DNA of 48,452 bases, taken from IMG/VR virus record IMGVR_UViG_2718218453_000005; one strand, 5' to 3'. Made by a program: the position numbers and the translations under genes. Under the pieces are notes generated by a model, which made no database searches, was not told the origin of the DNA, and worked only from the letters and a program-made list of their open reading frames with translations. The DNA comes from a virus. Its lineage: Duplodnaviria > Heunggongvirae > Uroviricota > Caudoviricetes. Positions 31,633 to 37,727 of the stretch are shown here, in pieces. Numbering within the stretch: the first letter of the stretch is position 1; each line of letters starts with the position of its first letter.

Positions 31633-31910
31633 TTCTCAATCTCTCGATGGCGCAGTGCAGCAGATGCCAGTTGTTCAGGCTGGCGAATAAAGTATAAATA
31701 AACTGGCTATGGTGTAAAGCTCCACATAACATGAACAAACACTACATATCAAATAGCTGATACAAGGATAGAAATACAACACTTATTATTAAAAACGATT
31801 AGATAAATTACATTTTAATGTTATGAAAAAGTTCTTTTTTATCATAACATTTCAACAAAAGCATTACAGATGCACATCCCGTCATCATCAATTATTTAAG
31901 GTGGTTAAAC

Positions 31911-31997
31911 ATGGAAAATAACAACTATGCACATCTCGCTCCTTTTTTATCCGTAATCCTTTTCGCTGGCTGTTTTATATGGGCATTATTTTTATAA
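31911..31997 (+). CDS. putative small hydrophobic peptide (28 aa)
   Basis: AAGGTGG SD 6 nt before ATG; MENNNYAHLAPFLSVILFAGCFIWALFL; in AT-rich intergenic region; below ORF-track cutoff. Confidence 0.4.
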   Translation: MENNNYAHLAPFLSVILFAGCFIWALFL

Positions 31998-32070
31998 AGT
32001 AGCCGCATGATTAGTTTCTGGAATCATGTTTCCCACTCAAATCATTAACATTTGATAAGATATATCTAAA

Positions 32071-32132
32071 AGGATGCCTTTACATTATTTGATGCGTATA
32101 TGATTTATTTATATGCACAGTAAAGGCATCCT
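32071..32132. repeat. 13-bp perfect inverted repeat (AGGATGCCTTTAC / GTAAAGGCATCCT) separated by 36 bp
   Basis: read directly from sequence; in AT-rich non-coding region. Confidence 0.6.
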
Positions 32133-32498
32133 GGAAATAATCAAGATTAATGATATATTGCTTATCTCATCCCCCACTGTCTTTCACCCGGAAAACATTT
32201 ATCGTTAAAAATATATCATAAGTAATTAAATTGAAATTTCAGAACACAACTAATGCACACAATAAGATTCAGTAACAGTAATCTATGCGGACTATATCGA
32301 GATTTTTTAGTTAAACTTTAATAAGTTATTCCTAACACACAGAATGCACAAACTAAAAGTAAAACAAATAGTTATACGAAAAACAACCATATTGATTCTA
32401 TCTTCTCCTCTAATCAACATATCAATTATGTGTTTCATAACAGCTTGACATAACCCTCAAAAAGGTGCATTTATAATGCATTTTTTATGGGGGTGGTT

Positions 32499-33674: not shown

Positions 33675-33695
33675 ACTGTAGAAAAATACATAATG

Positions 33696-36600
33696 CTATG
33701 TATCTGAGCCAAACATAGAGCGCCGCCTTGTTATTTTATAATAAGTGGGATTTTCATTATCCACCTCAAAATCAGAGAAGAAGTGGTTATCTCTTAATGC
33801 TGTTAATAAACTTTGATTAGTTGAATCAACTTCAATTTTAGGTTTGCCTCGCCCCAAAATTTTACTGAACTCCGATAAACCAAGCAGATCAAGATACTCT
33901 TTGCAAGTCGTCTTACTCAAATCCTTACCCGGCAACAAAGCGATTAGCAGTGCTATTTTATTCTGCATATTCAGTCCCTCTGCGACAAACAGGTTTTTTA
34001 GTAACGGTTCAGAAACATCATTAGGACTTGCTATCAATGCTGATATATCCTGTATTGCTCGACTCAAGATGAGCGACTGAGTAGAGGTTCCCCAAGTTTT
34101 ATAAGATGACGTCAAGATTAGAAGTTCATCTGGTTTAAAATTATTTTCTAAAATATAGTCATTAACGACCTGAGAGTAATTCTTACTATAAATAGCCAAC
34201 GGAGTTTTAACAAACTCGAGTAGCTTAACTTTCAAATCATCATCAACTTTCCAAGAAAGTATTGATATAGCCTCATCCAAAATAAAGTTATCAATCGTCA
34301 TTAATTCAACGTATGCCCTGATATTCTTATGAATATAATAGGAAAGTTGCTCTGAATAGTTATCTCGTATGAAATTAAGTGGCGCAACATTCATACGAAT
34401 AATATTTTTATCCACTAATATTTTGAACTTATCACTCGCGATATTACTAGCGCTAAAGGATGTTTTACAAATAATATTTAGTGAGCAAATTAATTTTTCA
34501 TATTTATCATTTGATAAATCATTACAGATAACAATCGATTTAAATAATTTACCTTTAAGCTCGTTATCAATATTAATATTTTGAAAATTCAGGTCTACAT
34601 CAGTTCTATTGATAAATTCGATAAGTGAGTCATCCAGTCCATCAACATGTTCAAAATAAGAGACAATATTTTCCTCAGAGCACACTGCTCTATCTTTATC
34701 CAACAAAGATGACCATAAAGATTCGCTCTCAACCTCACTCAGAGATGTCACGAAAGTTTGCAAAGCGTTTATATACTGGCCTTTTTGTTCATCAGATATT
34801 CCCTCATTATTAAGAACGGATAAAACAATGGATTCATCATCCACGATTGAACCATCACAACTAGATAAAACCATATCCAGATAGTCCCTAATATGGTTAT
34901 TAACATAACTAGCCAAGGGAGAATCAGGTTGTGACATCACTAGTGTATAGTTCTTATGGCGAATATCATCTTCACTATTAAGCGTGTAAACCTTACTCAG
35001 CATTAAGGTCAGGTTGGAAAAATTAATATCATAAAGTGAATGCTGGTAAACCGCATCAAAGAGTACTTTATTTGCGTTTTCAAATTTAATACTGACAAAA
35101 GAGACGTTAAGCAACTTAAAACCACTAATTAATTTGTCAACCTTCGGTTCTGATATTGCTAAATAACCTGCCGAATCAGAGATGTAATCAGTCAGACAAT
35201 CATCAATATTAATGGCCTCGATGGCGTCATTGGCAGAATAATAAAACGTGCCTATAGAGTAGAGTTTAACCCAATCAGCAGAAAATTCACTCTCTGTCAG
35301 CGCATAAGAAAAAAACTCAGGCCACTGTGTATTTAATCGATTAATGAAGACAGGCTGAGCCCTCTCAGTTTCAAAGTAACCACGAATAAACTCAACTCTT
35401 CTATCTTTTCTTAGTTGTTTGAATAAACGTTTTATTAAGTTTACCTGGGCTGGCGTTTGAAGCAGATAAGCTAATAAATCAAAATTAAGCGCCTCTTCCT
35501 GTTCAAAATCCACTTCTCGAAGGCGGGCAACGACCAGCTTGGGGTTCTTGAGTTGATAAGTGAACTCTTTGCCTTTTTGATCGGTAATGCTGCGTAAAAA
35601 CATCTTATCAATTCGACTCAGGCTATTTTCATAAAAATAGGTCATATAGTCGGTATAGGTTTCATCAATATAACCATCACGAATAAGGTATTTAAGCAAG
35701 TCAAAATACTCACTGCTTTTTATTTCATTAAAGTCTCTTTCCTCTCCAATTTCATTGGTATAGGTGAGTTTAAATATTTCATCAATGTTTTCTCTAGTTA
35801 TTACTTCTTTAAGTCTTTTGTTTCTAGAATCAACCAAACTTTCTCTTGATCTTGATATAAGCTCATTAATTTCTTCTATTTTACCATTAAATTTATTTTC
35901 AACACTTTCTTTTCTAGCCGCCCTTCTCTTTGCTATATCAGCTTTCTCAGCCTGATTATAGTGAGGATGATTATTATATCTAGATAATTCCTTATCGTAT
36001 ATAGCATCAACCTCCTGACTAGAGTTGAGTATTTCATCATTGATTGCCTCAATCTCTTTTTTTCTATCTCTAATATCTTTTTCTATTTTCTTTATTTCTT
36101 CAATAATAAGGTTGTCTTTTTCACTAAATATGGTATAAACCATACCTTGATTAAGTTGCAACTCACTAAAATCTCTTGGGAAAATATTCTTATAGGCAAT
36201 AATGGCCAACATTTTATTACAGTCAAGTTCTGTCGTGTTTAATTTGTTATAATAAATTTGAAATTCGTTATAAATATTCTTCAATATTCTCATATCATCA
36301 ATATATAAAGACATCCCTTGTAGAAATCTTTCATTGAACAACTTGAGAATACCACCACCATCAAAATGTGTGATAAACTGATCGTAAGAGTTAGAACTAT
36401 CAACAACAGGAATAACTGGAATGATATAATCAAAGAATTTGGTTCTATCCTTCGAAATGAAGATATCATCACGAAGCAAGTAAATAAAACGTAACGTCGA
36501 TTTCTTGTGCCCTGCTGTGTCCCGTTGAATATTAACCAGTCTGTTAACCTCATGAAGACGTTCAAAGATGTTATTACTATTAAAACGGTCCATGTCTTCA

Positions 36601-37328
36601 AAAACAATGGCATCAGCATCAACGTTCTCGAAAAGGTACAATACTTCATTTAAATATCTATCGAAATAAGACTCGTTACTTTCTTCAAAAATCTCTATTT
36701 CATTACCCTGTAAATTTATTTTCTTAAGAACATTACGATTCTTTTGGGTTTTTATTAACTTGTAAATGAAAATACAAGATAGGATAGTACATATAAACCC
36801 ACTAATTAAAAGCGTATCGTATTTAGTTGATAATGTAAGTAGTGTCTTTATATTACCTTCAGATAAAAGTGAAACAAACTTTTCCCACTTATTAAATAGC
36901 GTGATATGTAGTATCATGGCGATAAATAACACCGTAAAGATGGTGTTTATCACAATGTTGTTAGTTTTTATTTTTTTCTTTACTTTAAAATGTGTCTGGG
37001 GAATATCATCAGCATTAATTTGGTGAATTAACTGGTTAAGAACTTTACCTTCTAACGCGGTTTCATTTATATCTTTACTTGGTTCATTAGTTTCAGCTTC
37101 CTCAATCGATCTGAAATGAGCAAGTGAGATATGAACAAACTTTATATTTGAATGACTTTTCTTATAGGATTCGATAAGACTACTTTTTCCTGCGCTATAT
37201 TGCCCTGATATCGCAACATTTTTTAGATCGTTATTGGCAAAAACAAAATCTATCGCATTTTTATATACACCCAGCTCAACATCGCTGAACGGCGTTAACT
37301 TTTGAAATTTATAGCTATCATCACTCAT
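33696..37328 (-). CDS. KAP-family / YobI-like transmembrane P-loop NTPase (candidate anti-phage defence protein)
   Basis: 1210 aa; Walker A-like ISGQYSAGKSS, two hydrophobic helices inserted before Walker B-like AIVFEDMDRF; long helical C-terminal region; AT-rich; own SD and terminator. Confidence 0.8.
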   Translation of the reverse strand: MSDDSYKFQKLTPFSDVELGVYKNAIDFVFANNDLKNVAISGQYSAGKSSLIESYKKSHSNIKFVHISLAHFRSIEEAETNEPSKDINETALEGKVLNQLIHQINADDIPQTHFKVKKKIKTNNIVINTIFTVLFIAMILHITLFNKWEKFVSLLSEGNIKTLLTLSTKYDTLLISGFICTILSCIFIYKLIKTQKNRNVLKKINLQGNEIEIFEESNESYFDRYLNEVLYLFENVDADAIVFEDMDRFNSNNIFERLHEVNRLVNIQRDTAGHKKSTLRFIYLLRDDIFISKDRTKFFDYIIPVIPVVDSSNSYDQFITHFDGGGILKLFNERFLQGMSLYIDDMRILKNIYNEFQIYYNKLNTTELDCNKMLAIIAYKNIFPRDFSELQLNQGMVYTIFSEKDNLIIEEIKKIEKDIRDRKKEIEAINDEILNSSQEVDAIYDKELSRYNNHPHYNQAEKADIAKRRAARKESVENKFNGKIEEINELISRSRESLVDSRNKRLKEVITRENIDEIFKLTYTNEIGEERDFNEIKSSEYFDLLKYLIRDGYIDETYTDYMTYFYENSLSRIDKMFLRSITDQKGKEFTYQLKNPKLVVARLREVDFEQEEALNFDLLAYLLQTPAQVNLIKRLFKQLRKDRRVEFIRGYFETERAQPVFINRLNTQWPEFFSYALTESEFSADWVKLYSIGTFYYSANDAIEAINIDDCLTDYISDSAGYLAISEPKVDKLISGFKLLNVSFVSIKFENANKVLFDAVYQHSLYDINFSNLTLMLSKVYTLNSEDDIRHKNYTLVMSQPDSPLASYVNNHIRDYLDMVLSSCDGSIVDDESIVLSVLNNEGISDEQKGQYINALQTFVTSLSEVESESLWSSLLDKDRAVCSEENIVSYFEHVDGLDDSLIEFINRTDVDLNFQNINIDNELKGKLFKSIVICNDLSNDKYEKLICSLNIICKTSFSASNIASDKFKILVDKNIIRMNVAPLNFIRDNYSEQLSYYIHKNIRAYVELMTIDNFILDEAISILSWKVDDDLKVKLLEFVKTPLAIYSKNYSQVVNDYILENNFKPDELLILTSSYKTWGTSTQSLILSRAIQDISALIASPNDVSEPLLKNLFVAEGLNMQNKIALLIALLPGKDLSKTTCKEYLDLLGLSEFSKILGRGKPKIEVDSTNQSLLTALRDNHFFSDFEVDNENPTYYKITRRRSMFGSDT

Positions 37329-37727
37329 TGATATCCCTTCCCAATCTTCACCGAGAGAGCTGGCTTTCGGAGTTAATCAAACAAAATCATGCAGATAAAA
37401 TTTCGCCTTATTATAGCAGACACAACTGCAAAGATTAGCTAAAGCCTCGTTGTTTTCTTCATCTATCCCTATAATTTTACACTACAGTTAGCACTTACTA
37501 TACCTGAAAGCTTTGCTCGTAAAGAGCACAATCGCAAGTCAGCAAAGCACGACTTTGCAATCGAGCGCCGCTAAAACAGTGCTGAATCGCTACGACTTAG
37601 GCAGCCATCTTATCGGTTGGCAGATAATTTCTAACTTCCGCTTCTGGCACAAAGCGGACAACCACGATAGCTCTATCCTGTGCCACAAAATGTCAATTCA
37701 CATCTTAACTAATGCATTTTAATCTCG

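Follow-up and report, generated by a model that had tools for sequence, protein, structure and literature searches.

The stretch of DNA analysed here (the window) comprises 48,452 nucleotides of a Rac-like prophage, and three E. coli chromosomes are 100% identical to it, with the Rac-type neighbours recE, kilR, sieB, and trkG. The interval at 31633–37727 is flanked by the DUF1367 gene and the DUF977 (ydaW-like) gene, and its borders match the ends of these genes (DUF1367 start at 31632, DUF977 stop at 37728; Table 1). The early-right operon of the prophage is carried on the minus strand, and its replication module is of the 358-aa replisome-organizer type, without a DnaC-like gene. On the replication side the conserved frame genes end with DUF977, whose flank is kept in many Rac/Qin-like prophages, and toward Q the conserved nin-type frame genes start with DUF1367; the interval appears to be a variable accessory region, with the replication module (replisome organizer, DUF977) on one side and the nin/Q module (DUF1367, YbcO, DUF1133/Q) on the other. 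The AT-rich island that an initial annotation placed between the replication genes and Q is real, with a GC content (500-bp windows) of 0.29–0.37 at 31500–32750 and 33750–37500 compared with 0.49–0.59 in the flanking phage genes (30500–31750 and 38000–39750), and the interval lies ∼20 points under its flanks. The middle (32500–33750, containing DUF1971, hok/sok, and the spacer) is only mildly reduced, at 0.41–0.47, and two AT-rich blocks are therefore present rather than one. The parts listed in the same annotation (28-codon ORF, inverted repeat, YeaR-like gene, hok remnant, and large NTPase) are all found, and its description of the island as gene-sparse is partly right, except that ORFs fill ∼69% of the interval, 3.6 kb of this being a single gene, and the supposedly empty 31657–31998 contains a conserved small ORF.

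Table 1. Features of the interval and its flanking genes (positions in the window).
Feature	Position	Strand	Support or description
DUF1367 gene	31033..31632	-	Pfam PF07105, 3.5e-97
Conserved hairpin upstream of small ORF	31817..31851	.	AATGTTATG...CATAACATT
Conserved 28-codon ORF	31911..31997	+	MENNNYAHLAPFLSVILFAGCFIWALFL; AAGGTGG Shine-Dalgarno
Perfect 13-bp inverted repeat	32071-32083/32120-32132	.	AGGATGCCTTTAC/GTAAAGGCATCCT, 36-nt loop
Predicted NsrR operator	32462..32484	+	AAGGTGCATTTATAATGCATTTT, overlapping TATAAT box
DUF1971/YeaR-like gene	32499..32840	+	Pfam PF09313, 3e-26; RefSeq CDS in identical genome L001
hokD-type toxin ORF, truncated, 41 aa	32923..33048	-	Pfam HOK_GEF, 3e-16
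sok antisense/hok mRNA leader region, intact	33046..33216	-	Rfam RF01794, 101.3 bits (gathering score 59), E 1.5e-22
Conserved non-coding spacer, hok/sok to H_L, belonging to the frame	33244..33527	.	
H_L palindrome, left slot edge	33528..33551	.	GGCCGCTT-TGAGCGAA-GAGCGGAC
Intrinsic-terminator-like hairpin and T-run	33652..33674	-	TTGGGCACTTTTATAGTGCCCAA then TTTTTACGCT
YobI-family Tmn-like transmembrane P-loop NTPase, 1210 aa	33696..37328	-	Pfam PF20693, 8e-123, 411 bits
Predicted extended -10, TGcTATAAT, inside cassette	37410..37418	-	Read from sequence
H_R palindrome, right slot edge	37636..37659	.	TTCCGCTT-CTGGCACA-AAGCGGAC
DUF977 (ydaW-like, 'LygF') gene	37728..38150	-	Pfam PF06163, 1e-28; annotated in L001

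The interval appears to be pieced together from at least four units that vary independently of one another. Homology to eleven related loci breaks at 31998, ∼32885–32929, 33547–33558, and 37632–37637, and of 5,426 complete E. coli genomes, three carry the whole 7.4-kb arrangement, 31 the NTPase cassette, and 449 the DUF1971 block (at ≥80% coverage). The second unit is a decayed hokD/sok type I toxin-antitoxin locus, in which alignment to intact hokD from K-12 and from four further loci reveals a 1-bp deletion at codon 37 and replacement of the 3' end and 3' UTR. A fold-back 3' element is needed for regulated hok translation and, with the 3' end replaced, has therefore presumably been lost. The YeaR-like moron is encoded on the plus strand, against the direction of the phage early operon, and its product is 44% identical to K-12 YeaR. 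The predicted NsrR operator has three mismatches relative to the ytfE-type 11-1-11 site (site list from PMC5320621), is the sole match in the window with none in 100 shuffles, and stays palindromic in diverged alleles; it may permit nitric-oxide/nitrate-induced expression of the YeaR-like gene from the repressed prophage. A conserved 28-codon membrane-peptide gene would make up the fourth unit. This ORF is intact, with start and stop codons kept, in four diverged loci (L002, L005, L006, and L010), which share 64–89% amino acid identity and 74–96% identity in the surrounding DNA, with synonymous changes, and its product is a candidate small membrane protein. The upstream hairpin has a loop that differs between loci, and the arms of the 13-bp inverted repeat carry two non-compensating changes in diverged alleles (11 of 13 positions paired), which gives no evidence of structural constraint on the repeat.

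The main cargo of the slot is the 1210-aa NTPase gene, within a cassette at 33552–37635 that may be self-contained, encoding a YobI-family membrane NTPase under its own predicted promoter and terminator. The extended -10 element is the likely NTPase promoter, followed by a ∼75-nt leader with a GGGAAGGGA Shine-Dalgarno sequence, and the terminator-like hairpin lies 22 nt past the stop codon. The protein contains a Walker A motif (residues 42–49), an FEDMDR motif (243–248), and two hydrophobic helices between Walker A and Walker B (transmembrane segments 125–143 and 174–192). Its AF2 model (pLDDT 84) comprises a P-loop core, a coiled coil (404–501), and an all-alpha repeat region (∼600–1160); the NTPase has no significant match in the PDB. 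The PADLOC Tmn model matches at 1e-66, in the N-terminal third only; identity to a plasmid Tmn is 26% over 688 aligned columns (query residues 4–612), and identity to the tested Tmn proteins is 26–28%, limited to the first ∼600 residues, with no similarity to them detectable in the C-terminal 600 residues. The residues shown experimentally to be essential for Tmn-25 function (PMC13001434) align to Y231, D245, R248, N266, K297, F298, and R347, and all seven are invariant in 51 relatives with 33–48% identity to the query. The NTPase is 92–100% conserved in Escherichia, Klebsiella, Serratia, Yersinia, and Pectobacterium, and the cassette is dispensable, since IS elements or frameshifts disrupt it in a few genomes. 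In the sets searched this NTPase is chromosomal only, located in slots of prophages or islands, with no plasmid copy; the cassette is absent from INPHARED phage records, and the closest full-length PLSDB match is a Fusobacterium record (36%). Its homology and architecture suggest a divergent Tmn-type anti-phage sensor-effector, in which the two transmembrane helices would anchor an N-terminal P-loop ATPase and a helical solenoid at the C terminus would recognise a phage protein, with ATP consumption and ion loss halting the infection and thus shielding the lysogen from other phages.

Cargo varies among otherwise collinear prophages, and unrelated genes occupy the equal position in related prophages and phages, several of them matching defence models. 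Alternative cargos include IetA/IetS (1e-298/9e-143), GmrSD/HEC-06 (4e-221) with a TPR protein, PDC-S15/FRG, PDC-S39, Hp1/Hp2, an adenosine-deaminase protein, a NUDIX protein, QueH, GNAT+HTH, and, in K-12 Qin, relBE; no empty site was found across the 5,426 E. coli genomes. This unrelated cargo and the different unit frequencies support the initial proposal of a moron/defence hotspot built by several acquisitions. The same annotation was mistaken in placing ydaV of K-12 Rac at this position: ydaV lies upstream of the slot, between ydaU and the DUF1627/DUF977 genes, as part of an alternative replication module (seen in loci L004 and L006). K-12 Rac has lost the slot together with hok, DUF1367, ybcO, Q, and most lysis genes, since ydaW there runs directly into rzpR/trkG.

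A 24-bp palindrome marks each end of the slot, GTCCGCTT-TGAGCGAA-AAGCGGAC (H_L) and GTCCGCTT-CTGGCACA-AAGCGGAC (H_R). The two have identical arms and differing centres (TGAGCGA in H_L and TGGCACA in H_R), and a cargo slot bounded by this pair is new here. In every frame examined, cargo identity switches exactly inside the palindromes. At H_L the frame is 100% conserved through TGAGCGA, the inner arm is ∼85% conserved, and identity falls to background beyond it; at H_R the outer arm and TGGCACA core are 100% conserved across 16 different cargos and the inner arm moves with the cargo. Across 37 IMG/VR contigs and several E. coli loci, the adjoining spacer (33244–33527) keeps 88–100% identity regardless of cargo. 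Among the loci examined, 84 H_L-to-H_R cassettes fall into 58 cargo clusters in ∼40 frames, with at least 14 different cargos in the lambdoid frame and at least four in the P2 frame, where fun(Z) of phage P2 is enclosed by the same pair. The NTPase cassette itself occurs in three frames (this one and two unrelated islands), with inner arms kept and outer arms differing. Site order and orientation are invariably L, cargo, R, and tandem cassettes are joined through R-L junctions with a spacer of mostly 16–18 nt. As DNA, H_R forms a hairpin of -6.4 kcal/mol (z -3.5). The IS110 family targets palindromic repeats, and an IS110-family transposase is located exactly within one H_R (locus L075). In Xanthobacteraceae MAGs, and likewise in other Enterobacterales, the palindromes also occur as multi-copy intergenic elements beside ordinary genes, for which reason they are perhaps not dedicated recombination sites and would fit REP-like elements; R-type sites alone form multi-copy intergenic arrays near housekeeping-type genes in Alphaproteobacteria. 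The palindromes may serve as the points at which cassettes are exchanged among lambdoid prophages, P2-like phages, and integrative islands.

The whole interval is very probably an accessory patchwork of a Rac-like lambdoid E. coli prophage, with a Tmn-like cargo in a palindrome-edged slot. That it is instead ancestral nin-region content conserved across Rac-like phages, with no island at all, is wildly improbable: the hok-side spacer, the 28-codon ORF block, and the DUF977 flank are indeed widely conserved, but the full arrangement is present in just three of 5,426 genomes, collinear prophages differ in cargo, and the GC deficit is large; this reading was rejected on the rarity of the arrangement, the breakpoints against related loci, and the presence of the cassette in 31 genomes. 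It is also improbable, though less so, that the NTPase is a membrane ATPase with a role other than defence, serving the prophage or persisting as a selfish or silenced passenger in a largely silent AT-rich block. AT-rich DNA of this sort is frequently silenced by H-NS, and the C-terminal half without detectable similarity to the tested Tmn proteins, the lack of a significant PDB match, and the rarity and occasional IS disruption of the cassette would all agree with such a role. However, the NTPase shares the Tmn architecture and every Tmn-25-essential NTPase-domain residue, is under strong purifying conservation across genera, has promoter- and terminator-like signals of its own, and resides in a slot elsewhere occupied by IetAS, GmrSD, and PDC systems.

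Two accounts of how cassettes might be exchanged can be weighed. H_L and H_R could be REP-like extragenic palindromes with a primary role in RNA or DNA structure (3'-end hairpins, insulators), the cassettes being moved by Rad52-like short-homology recombination in which RecT of Rac or Red-beta uses the palindromes and the ∼60-bp R-spacer-L composite as 'boundary sequences'; this falls short of an even chance but is a real possibility. Consistent with it, H_R lies 68 nt past the DUF977 stop codon and H_L 145 nt past the NTPase gene, such sites are widespread, with multiple intergenic copies in several phyla, the prophage encodes its own recE, the IS110-family transposase inserted exactly in one H_R, and lambda recombines with Rac and Qin through the action of Rad52-like recombinases on short diverged homology with a minimum of ∼30 bp (PMC3945230). 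Nevertheless, 24 bp is below this minimum unless spacer homology contributes, the constant formation of junctions at the palindrome centre and the fixed order of two distinct centres are left unexplained, and both lambdoid and P2 groups carry the sites although no recent mosaics between these groups were found (PMC3945230). The other account is true site-specific recombination, with each palindrome a core-type site of two 8-bp inverted arms around a 7–8-nt asymmetric centre, the differing centres making the sites heterospecific as in recombinase-mediated cassette exchange, and two crossovers (L × L and R × R) leading to a swap and not an excision. The sharp junctions, the single cassette with cores and inner arms kept in three unrelated frames, the constant order and orientation, and the R-L junctions linking tandem cassettes argue for it, and the title of the 2004 work by Nilsson et al., cited in PMC9122126, claims site-specific recombination for the variable loci of P2. 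It is nonetheless rather unlikely, given that no recombinase accompanies the sites in any locus examined, several cassettes have degenerate inner arms, R-type sites stand alone in alphaproteobacterial arrays, and an empty site is absent across 5,426 genomes.

Several known systems resemble parts of this locus. Tmn (YobI family; PADLOC 'Tmn'; Wu et al., preprint, PMC13001434) is likewise a single-gene, self-contained unit of ∼1200 aa on mobile elements, with two transmembrane helices between Walker A and Walker B, the same essential NTPase residues, a coiled-coil 'proximal arm', and an alpha-solenoid-like 'distal arm', but the protein here has 1210 aa instead of ∼1270 aa, is 26–28% identical to the plasmid (clade Ib-type) protein at residues ∼4–612 only, and occupies chromosomal prophage or island slots. 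In P2-like phage and P4 satellite hotspots, unrelated low-GC defence genes also interchange at a fixed temperate-phage position (Rousset et al., 2022; Nilsson et al., 2004), and fun(Z) lies between the same pair of palindromes; for these hotspots cos-end-promoted recombination was proposed and flanking palindromes are unmentioned (Rousset et al., 2022, PMC9122126). The present slot differs in belonging to a lambdoid family and in its position between replication and nin/Q genes. Integron cassettes are similarly promoter-independent units that follow one another in tandem with imperfect palindromic sites in between, as at the R-L junctions, whereas attC sites are variable (57–141 bp) and the sites here are nearly invariant (24 bp), lack RYYYAAC/GTTRRRY core sites, and occur as two types per cassette, with no IntI gene seen. 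Lambdoid morons, 'boundary sequences', and T4-type PeSL cassettes were reportedly described by Juhala (2000), Clark (2001), and Arbiol (2010). According to those descriptions, morons are autonomous units of atypical composition with their own promoter and terminator between conserved phage genes, and short conserved sequences containing stem-loops lie at cassette borders; here, by contrast, the borders are two specific 24-bp palindromes common to phage families, islands, and bacterial chromosomes, and they are not promoter-stem-loop units. The hokD(relF)/sok locus of K-12 Qin has the same hok allele (N-terminal 36 residues identical) and the same leader, and its equivalent slot contains relBE, ydfV, and flxA, with an H_R-like site adjoining relB, but hok is frameshifted here and has a replaced 3' end where it meets the DUF1971 block. 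Similarly, the NsrR-repressed, NarL-activated yeaR-yoaG operon of K-12 encodes a DUF1971 protein and has an 11-1-11 NsrR-type palindrome overlapping the -10 region, as predicted here, whereas the prophage-borne gene has a short leader, no yoaG partner, and a regulation that is predicted.

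The DNA of the window belongs to a Rac-like lambdoid prophage of E. coli. Its stretch from 31000 to 38400 is 100% identical to three E. coli chromosomes (strains NDM1, 1-62, and EC07), and one such identical chromosome is annotated, in order, with recE, kilR, sieB, and a LexA-type repressor, then with Cro, YdaT, a replisome organizer, and DUF977, and beyond the studied region (31633-37727) with DUF1367, DUF1364/YbcO, DUF1133 (Q-like), holin, lysozyme, spanin, and trkG. The order of these neighbours therefore indicates an early-right operon on the minus strand, and the studied region lies between its replication genes and its nin/Q genes. 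The AT-rich composition described in the initial annotation holds, with a GC content of 0.29-0.37 at 31500-32750 and 33750-37500 and of 0.49-0.59 in the phage genes on both sides, and can be refined to two AT-rich blocks with a GC content of 0.41-0.47 in between. The borders drawn there coincide with gene ends, and all five features that it named (the 28-codon ORF, a perfect inverted repeat, the YeaR-like gene, the hok remnant, and the large NTPase gene) are present at their positions. Its remark that K-12 Rac carries ydaV here instead does not stand, as ydaV belongs to a different replication module upstream of DUF977; in K-12 Rac, everything between ydaW and rzpR has been lost.

Pairwise comparison with 11 related loci places recurrent breakpoints at 31998, ~32885-32929, 33547-33558, and 37632-37637. 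Among 5,426 complete E. coli genomes, the whole arrangement occurs in 3, the block with the YeaR-like DUF1971 gene in 449, and the NTPase cassette (33552-37635) in 31. The island is thus real, and its main interpretation as a defence hotspot assembled by several acquisitions is correct, being borne out by the differing frequencies of its units, by the recurrent breakpoints, and by the swapped cargo in collinear phages and prophages. Elsewhere in the window, a second low-GC stretch (0.39-0.45) is found at 29050-30200, between the Q-like gene and the holin gene, and encodes a 189-aa hypothetical membrane-like protein (29413-29982, minus strand). Two other Rac-like prophages (loci L005 and L006) carry tRNA-Gly/Thr genes at the equivalent position, so this stretch is probably another variable slot. 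The trkG region (~26190-27650) is also AT-rich (GC 0.34-0.41), which fits trkG as foreign cargo of Rac.

Features of the studied region, with the corresponding palindromes of phage P2
Feature	Position	Strand	Remarks
Hydrophobic 28-codon ORF	31911-31997		conserved at protein level in Rac/Qin-like loci
Predicted NsrR operator	32462-32484		just upstream of DUF1971 gene; reads AAGGTGCATTTATAATGCATTTT; overlaps TATAAT (-10) box
DUF1971 (YeaR-like) gene	32499-32840	+	
H_L, left-edge palindrome	33528-33551		24-bp imperfect palindrome GTCCGCTT-TGAGCGAA-AAGCGGAC; centre TGAGCGA
YobI-family NTPase	33696-37328	-	1210 aa
Terminator-like hairpin	22 nt past NTPase stop codon	-	predicted
Extended -10, TGcTATAAT	37418-37410	-	upstream of NTPase gene
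H_R, right-edge palindrome	37636-37659		24-bp imperfect palindrome GTCCGCTT-CTGGCACA-AAGCGGAC; centre TGGCACA
Palindromes of phage P2 (L137)	~17433-17456 and ~15335-15358		P2 locus numbering

The smaller genes of the island differ in how well they are preserved. Relative to hokD, of which it is an allele, the hok ORF has lost 1 bp at codon 37; it encodes 41 aa, short of the ~50 aa of an intact Hok, and its 3' end is replaced or diverged from ~32929 leftwards; the sok antisense/hok leader is intact (RF01794, 101.3 bits against a gathering score of 59, full model 1-157). The product of the DUF1971 gene and K-12 YeaR share 44% identity. An NsrR site was taken as an 11-1-11 inverted repeat near AAGATGCATTT-N-AAATGCATCTT overlapping a promoter, and the site upstream of this gene has this form and agrees at 20 of 23 positions with the best of the E. 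coli NsrR sites listed in PMC5320621. Nothing else in the window matches in this way, and 100 shuffles gave no match. Diverged alleles with only 82% identity in the surrounding sequence have also kept the palindrome. Because K-12 yeaR is NsrR-regulated and induced by nitrate/NO (PMC5320621), the prophage gene is probably an NO-responsive moron, and its strong NsrR-type operator suggests that the region adds a lysogenic-conversion gene inducible by nitric oxide or nitrate.

In four diverged loci with 74-96% identity in the surrounding DNA, the 28-codon ORF has the same start and stop codons and has kept its Shine-Dalgarno sequence, with synonymous substitutions among the changes; K-12 Qin lacks the ORF. 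It probably codes for a genuine small membrane protein, and could alternatively be a type I toxin-like gene. Upstream of it, a hairpin at 31817-31851 has a conserved stem and a variable loop. The 13-bp perfect inverted repeat is real, and its reading as a conserved structure was rejected on account of two non-compensating changes in diverged alleles. A 56-bp segment right after its right arm (32133-32188) is missing from the other alleles of the DUF1971 block, as an indel.

[quoted passage not shown] Pfam PF20693 (YobI-ATPase) matches it at 410.9 bits (cut-off 27), with residues 22-398 covering profile positions 1-363 of 363, and the Walker A motif GQYSAGKS lies at 42-49 and FEDMDR at 243-248. 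Hydrophobic 19-mers at 125-143 and 174-192 fall between Walker A and Walker B, and in an AlphaFold model built on an alignment of 51 relatives (mean pLDDT 84.3) helices 123-143 and 170-198 are inserted in the P-loop core, so that the protein has both the profile match and the two transmembrane helices between Walker A and B that mark the family. The PADLOC Tmn model PDLC02220 is matched with E 1e-66 and 223.7 bits, although the best stretch pairs only residues 9-439 with positions 27-474 of the 1273-position profile. The protein is only distantly related to the Tmn proteins that have been tested, and its identity to the plasmid Tmn WP_231828659 ("anti-phage transmembrane ATPase," 1271 aa) is 26% over 688 aligned columns (NTPase residues 4-612), with no detectable similarity to this plasmid protein beyond residue 612. 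Searches of the PDB by sequence and fold gave no significant relative; the weak matches were to AAA+ proteins and to ARM/HEAT solenoids, the latter including beta-catenin, CAND1, and importins in Foldseek.

Tmn is a recently characterised YobI-family transmembrane NTPase that forms a decameric membrane complex; it is triggered by phage T2 RIIB, upon which ATP turnover is raised, Mg2+ is exported, and plasmolysis follows, and its specificity is set by a variable C-terminal solenoid (PMC13001434). Mutations in the NTPase domain of Tmn-25 that abolish defence affect G66/K67, Y262, D276/R279, N297, K325/F326, and R374 (PMC13001434). Mapped through WP_231828659 with a numbering offset of 2, these residues correspond to G47/K48, Y231, D245/R248, N266, K297/F298, and R347 of the window protein, and all are invariant in 51 full-length relatives (alignment A2; 33-48% identity to the query). 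The model also has the two arms of the Tmn type, with long paired helices forming a proximal coiled coil at 404-501 and a distal alpha-solenoid at ~600-1160, an all-helical repeat region of ~40 short helices with pLDDT >90. On these residues and this predicted fold, the protein most probably works like Tmn and likely belongs to the experimentally defined Tmn system, from which we infer its anti-phage function and mechanism. The subfamily comprises 4,753 cluster representatives at E<=1e-3, at least 150 of them full-length, and the protein is 92-100% conserved in Escherichia, Shigella, Klebsiella, Serratia, Yersinia, Pectobacterium, Enterobacter, and Morganella; it marks a highly conserved chromosomal clade of Tmn-like proteins that are candidates for defence study. 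In four E. coli genomes (H199, H200, H216, and H220), the cassette is broken by ISEc8, ISKpn26, or IS903B or split into several ORFs, and the gene is therefore dispensable.

The NTPase cassette is bounded by the palindromes H_L and H_R, whose arms are identical and whose centres differ. The same cassette occurs in other frames, that is, in other conserved sequence around the slot: it is 99.85% identical in a CP4-like island beside a yeeP-type GTPase and Ag43 (L003) and 95.5% identical in a small integrase islet by ldtA/cobT (L016). In both, homology begins at 33528-33530 and stops at 37654-37659, i.e., within the two palindromes, and the cassette cores and inner arms are retained while the outer arms are different. 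A pattern scan of IMG/VR for the sites yielded 119 contigs, 32 of which carry both window flanks with cargo of 12 sizes, running from right after H_L to right before H_R. Across 16 cargos in the lambdoid frame, identity is 100% through the 7-nt core, then ~85% over the arm on the cargo side and, directly beyond, 30-40%. All retrieved loci together hold 84 L-to-R cassettes, which form 58 cargo clusters in ~40 frames, and two cargos occur in three frames each. Such palindromes surround variable cargo in lambdoid prophages, at fun(Z) of phage P2, where the frame holds at least four cargos, in the CP4-like island, and in the integrase islet (L003, L016, and L017 among the loci); in the CP4-like frame of ATCC 25922, an iron-uptake cluster lies between the sites. 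One cargo gives way to another inside the palindromes. In tandem cassettes, the R-L junction spacing is 9-27 nt, mostly 16-18. As DNA hairpins, the consensus sites fold at ~-9.7 kcal/mol (z -4 to -6). Queries with joined flanks returned no unoccupied slot, nor any joined match for the CP4-like frame, and genome A20 has a 224-bp filler with both palindromes still at its ends. In locus L075 (~8086-9363), an IS110-family transposase gene abuts H_R and the inner arm is replaced (GACTATATT directly before TGGCACA...), which therefore represents an IS110-family insertion exactly at the palindrome centre.

The slot itself is a fixed position between conserved genes that holds at least 14 cargo clusters in the lambdoid frame, the pattern of P2/P4-type prophage defence hotspots. 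When the interval between DUF977 and hok was compared in collinear prophages and sequenced phages, the cargo was found to be IetA/IetS in phage vB_EcoS-683R6, GmrSD-type HEC-06 with a TPR protein in strain 04A19CPO007, an FRG/PDC-S15 protein in phage Tritos, QueH in phage HannyBb and another Rac-like prophage, an HTH-cupin regulator with GNAT in phage Evi, a KilA-N/BstA-like protein in strain Nord122, and relBE-ydfV-flxA in K-12 Qin; IMG/VR contigs add PDC-S39, Hp1/Hp2, adenosine deaminase, a NUDIX protein, and several proteins without a family match. PADLOC models are matched by IetAS, GmrSD/HEC-06, PDC-S15, PDC-S39, Hp1/Hp2, and Tmn-like proteins. The junction from replication to nin genes in Rac/Qin-like prophages is consequently a rich slot for defence discovery, with several cargos that match no family. 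In L005, an internal H_L copy (~10160-10183) lies between the TPR gene and the GmrSD gene, and the slot there therefore comprises two tandem cassettes. In K-12 Qin (L014), an H_R-like site, GGCTGCTCCTGGCACAAAGCGGAC, at ~4990 lies beside relB within the annotated ydfV ORF, and the relBE unit therefore fills the equivalent slot.

Sites of the R type are not confined to phages. When one genome per species was scanned, they turned up in many Enterobacterales and, unexpectedly, in multiple copies per contig in Xanthobacteraceae/Pseudolabrys MAGs. The palindrome ATGTCCGCT(A/T)TTGGCACAAAGCGGACAT is intergenic and multi-copy beside ordinary genes (L138-L257, e.g., L155 3036-7855, L235, and L147), with P-type ATPase, ABC substrate-binding protein, and histidine kinase genes as neighbours in Xanthobacteraceae/Pseudolabrys and a position between regulators and transporters in Pantoea- and Mixta-type chromosomes. 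The sites therefore belong to a REP-like family of extragenic palindromes that distant taxa share. At E<=1, Rfam gave no family for either palindrome, the 13-bp inverted repeat, or the hairpin upstream of the small ORF; the core of H_L may resemble the ERIC repeat, a likeness on which no claim is based. Several other readings were rejected. An integron cassette array was dismissed because H_L and H_R are without the attC cores RYYYAAC...GTTRRRY and the annotated flanks of L001-L007 contain no integron integrase. A transposon with 5'-TG...CA-3' ends, imperfect terminal inverted repeats, and a 16-bp palindromic target was set aside because outer arms and cores are preserved from frame to frame and the searches gave no empty target. 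Finally, the spacing and loop size of H_R, judged from its sequence, do not fit a sigma-54 promoter or boxB/nut.

The cassette may be exchanged site-specifically at heterospecific H_L and H_R sites, as the junctions are sharp, the order from L to R is fixed, and the cores are conserved, but no recombinase was linked to these sites in the loci examined. Alternatively, phage Rad52-like recombinases may exchange it through short homology; the prophage itself has recE, and such recombinases join lambda with Rac and Qin via short diverged homology (PMC3945230). It is possible, if somewhat doubtful, that H_L and H_R are the paired heterospecific sites of an undescribed cassette-exchange system, related to REP-like palindromes, that moves defence and other accessory genes. 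Such an exchange would link Enterobacterales elements that otherwise do not recombine, namely lambdoid prophages, P2-like phages, CP4-type islands, and small integrase islets, and its sites would be related to a palindrome family present in Alphaproteobacteria too. If H_L and H_R have this putative role and enzymology, they would provide a concrete molecular mechanism for the filling of phage "defence hotspots." As exchange sites of any kind, they would explain how one cassette gets into phage families otherwise without common recent mosaics, and would make L ... R a simple sequence signature for finding cargo slots genome-wide.

Nilsson et al., in the title of a paper from 2004, reportedly claimed site-specific recombination at P2 variable loci. 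The P2 sites have thus possibly been described earlier, and the present comparison adds the sites in lambdoid prophages and islands and a cassette that crosses frames. The 13- and 15-nt motifs were not found printed in the literature searched, which lacked the 2004 P2 variable-loci and Odegrip 2006 papers, and flanking repeats are not mentioned by Rousset et al. in their account of the P2/P4 hotspots, for which they suggested cos-end recombination (PMC9122126). The palindrome pair at the slot edges is the more consequential point and lifts the region above a routine island. In kind, the region is an ordinary prophage defence/moron hotspot with a new Tmn/YobI-family member of putative anti-phage role, a divergent representative of a defence family whose characterisation is very recent.
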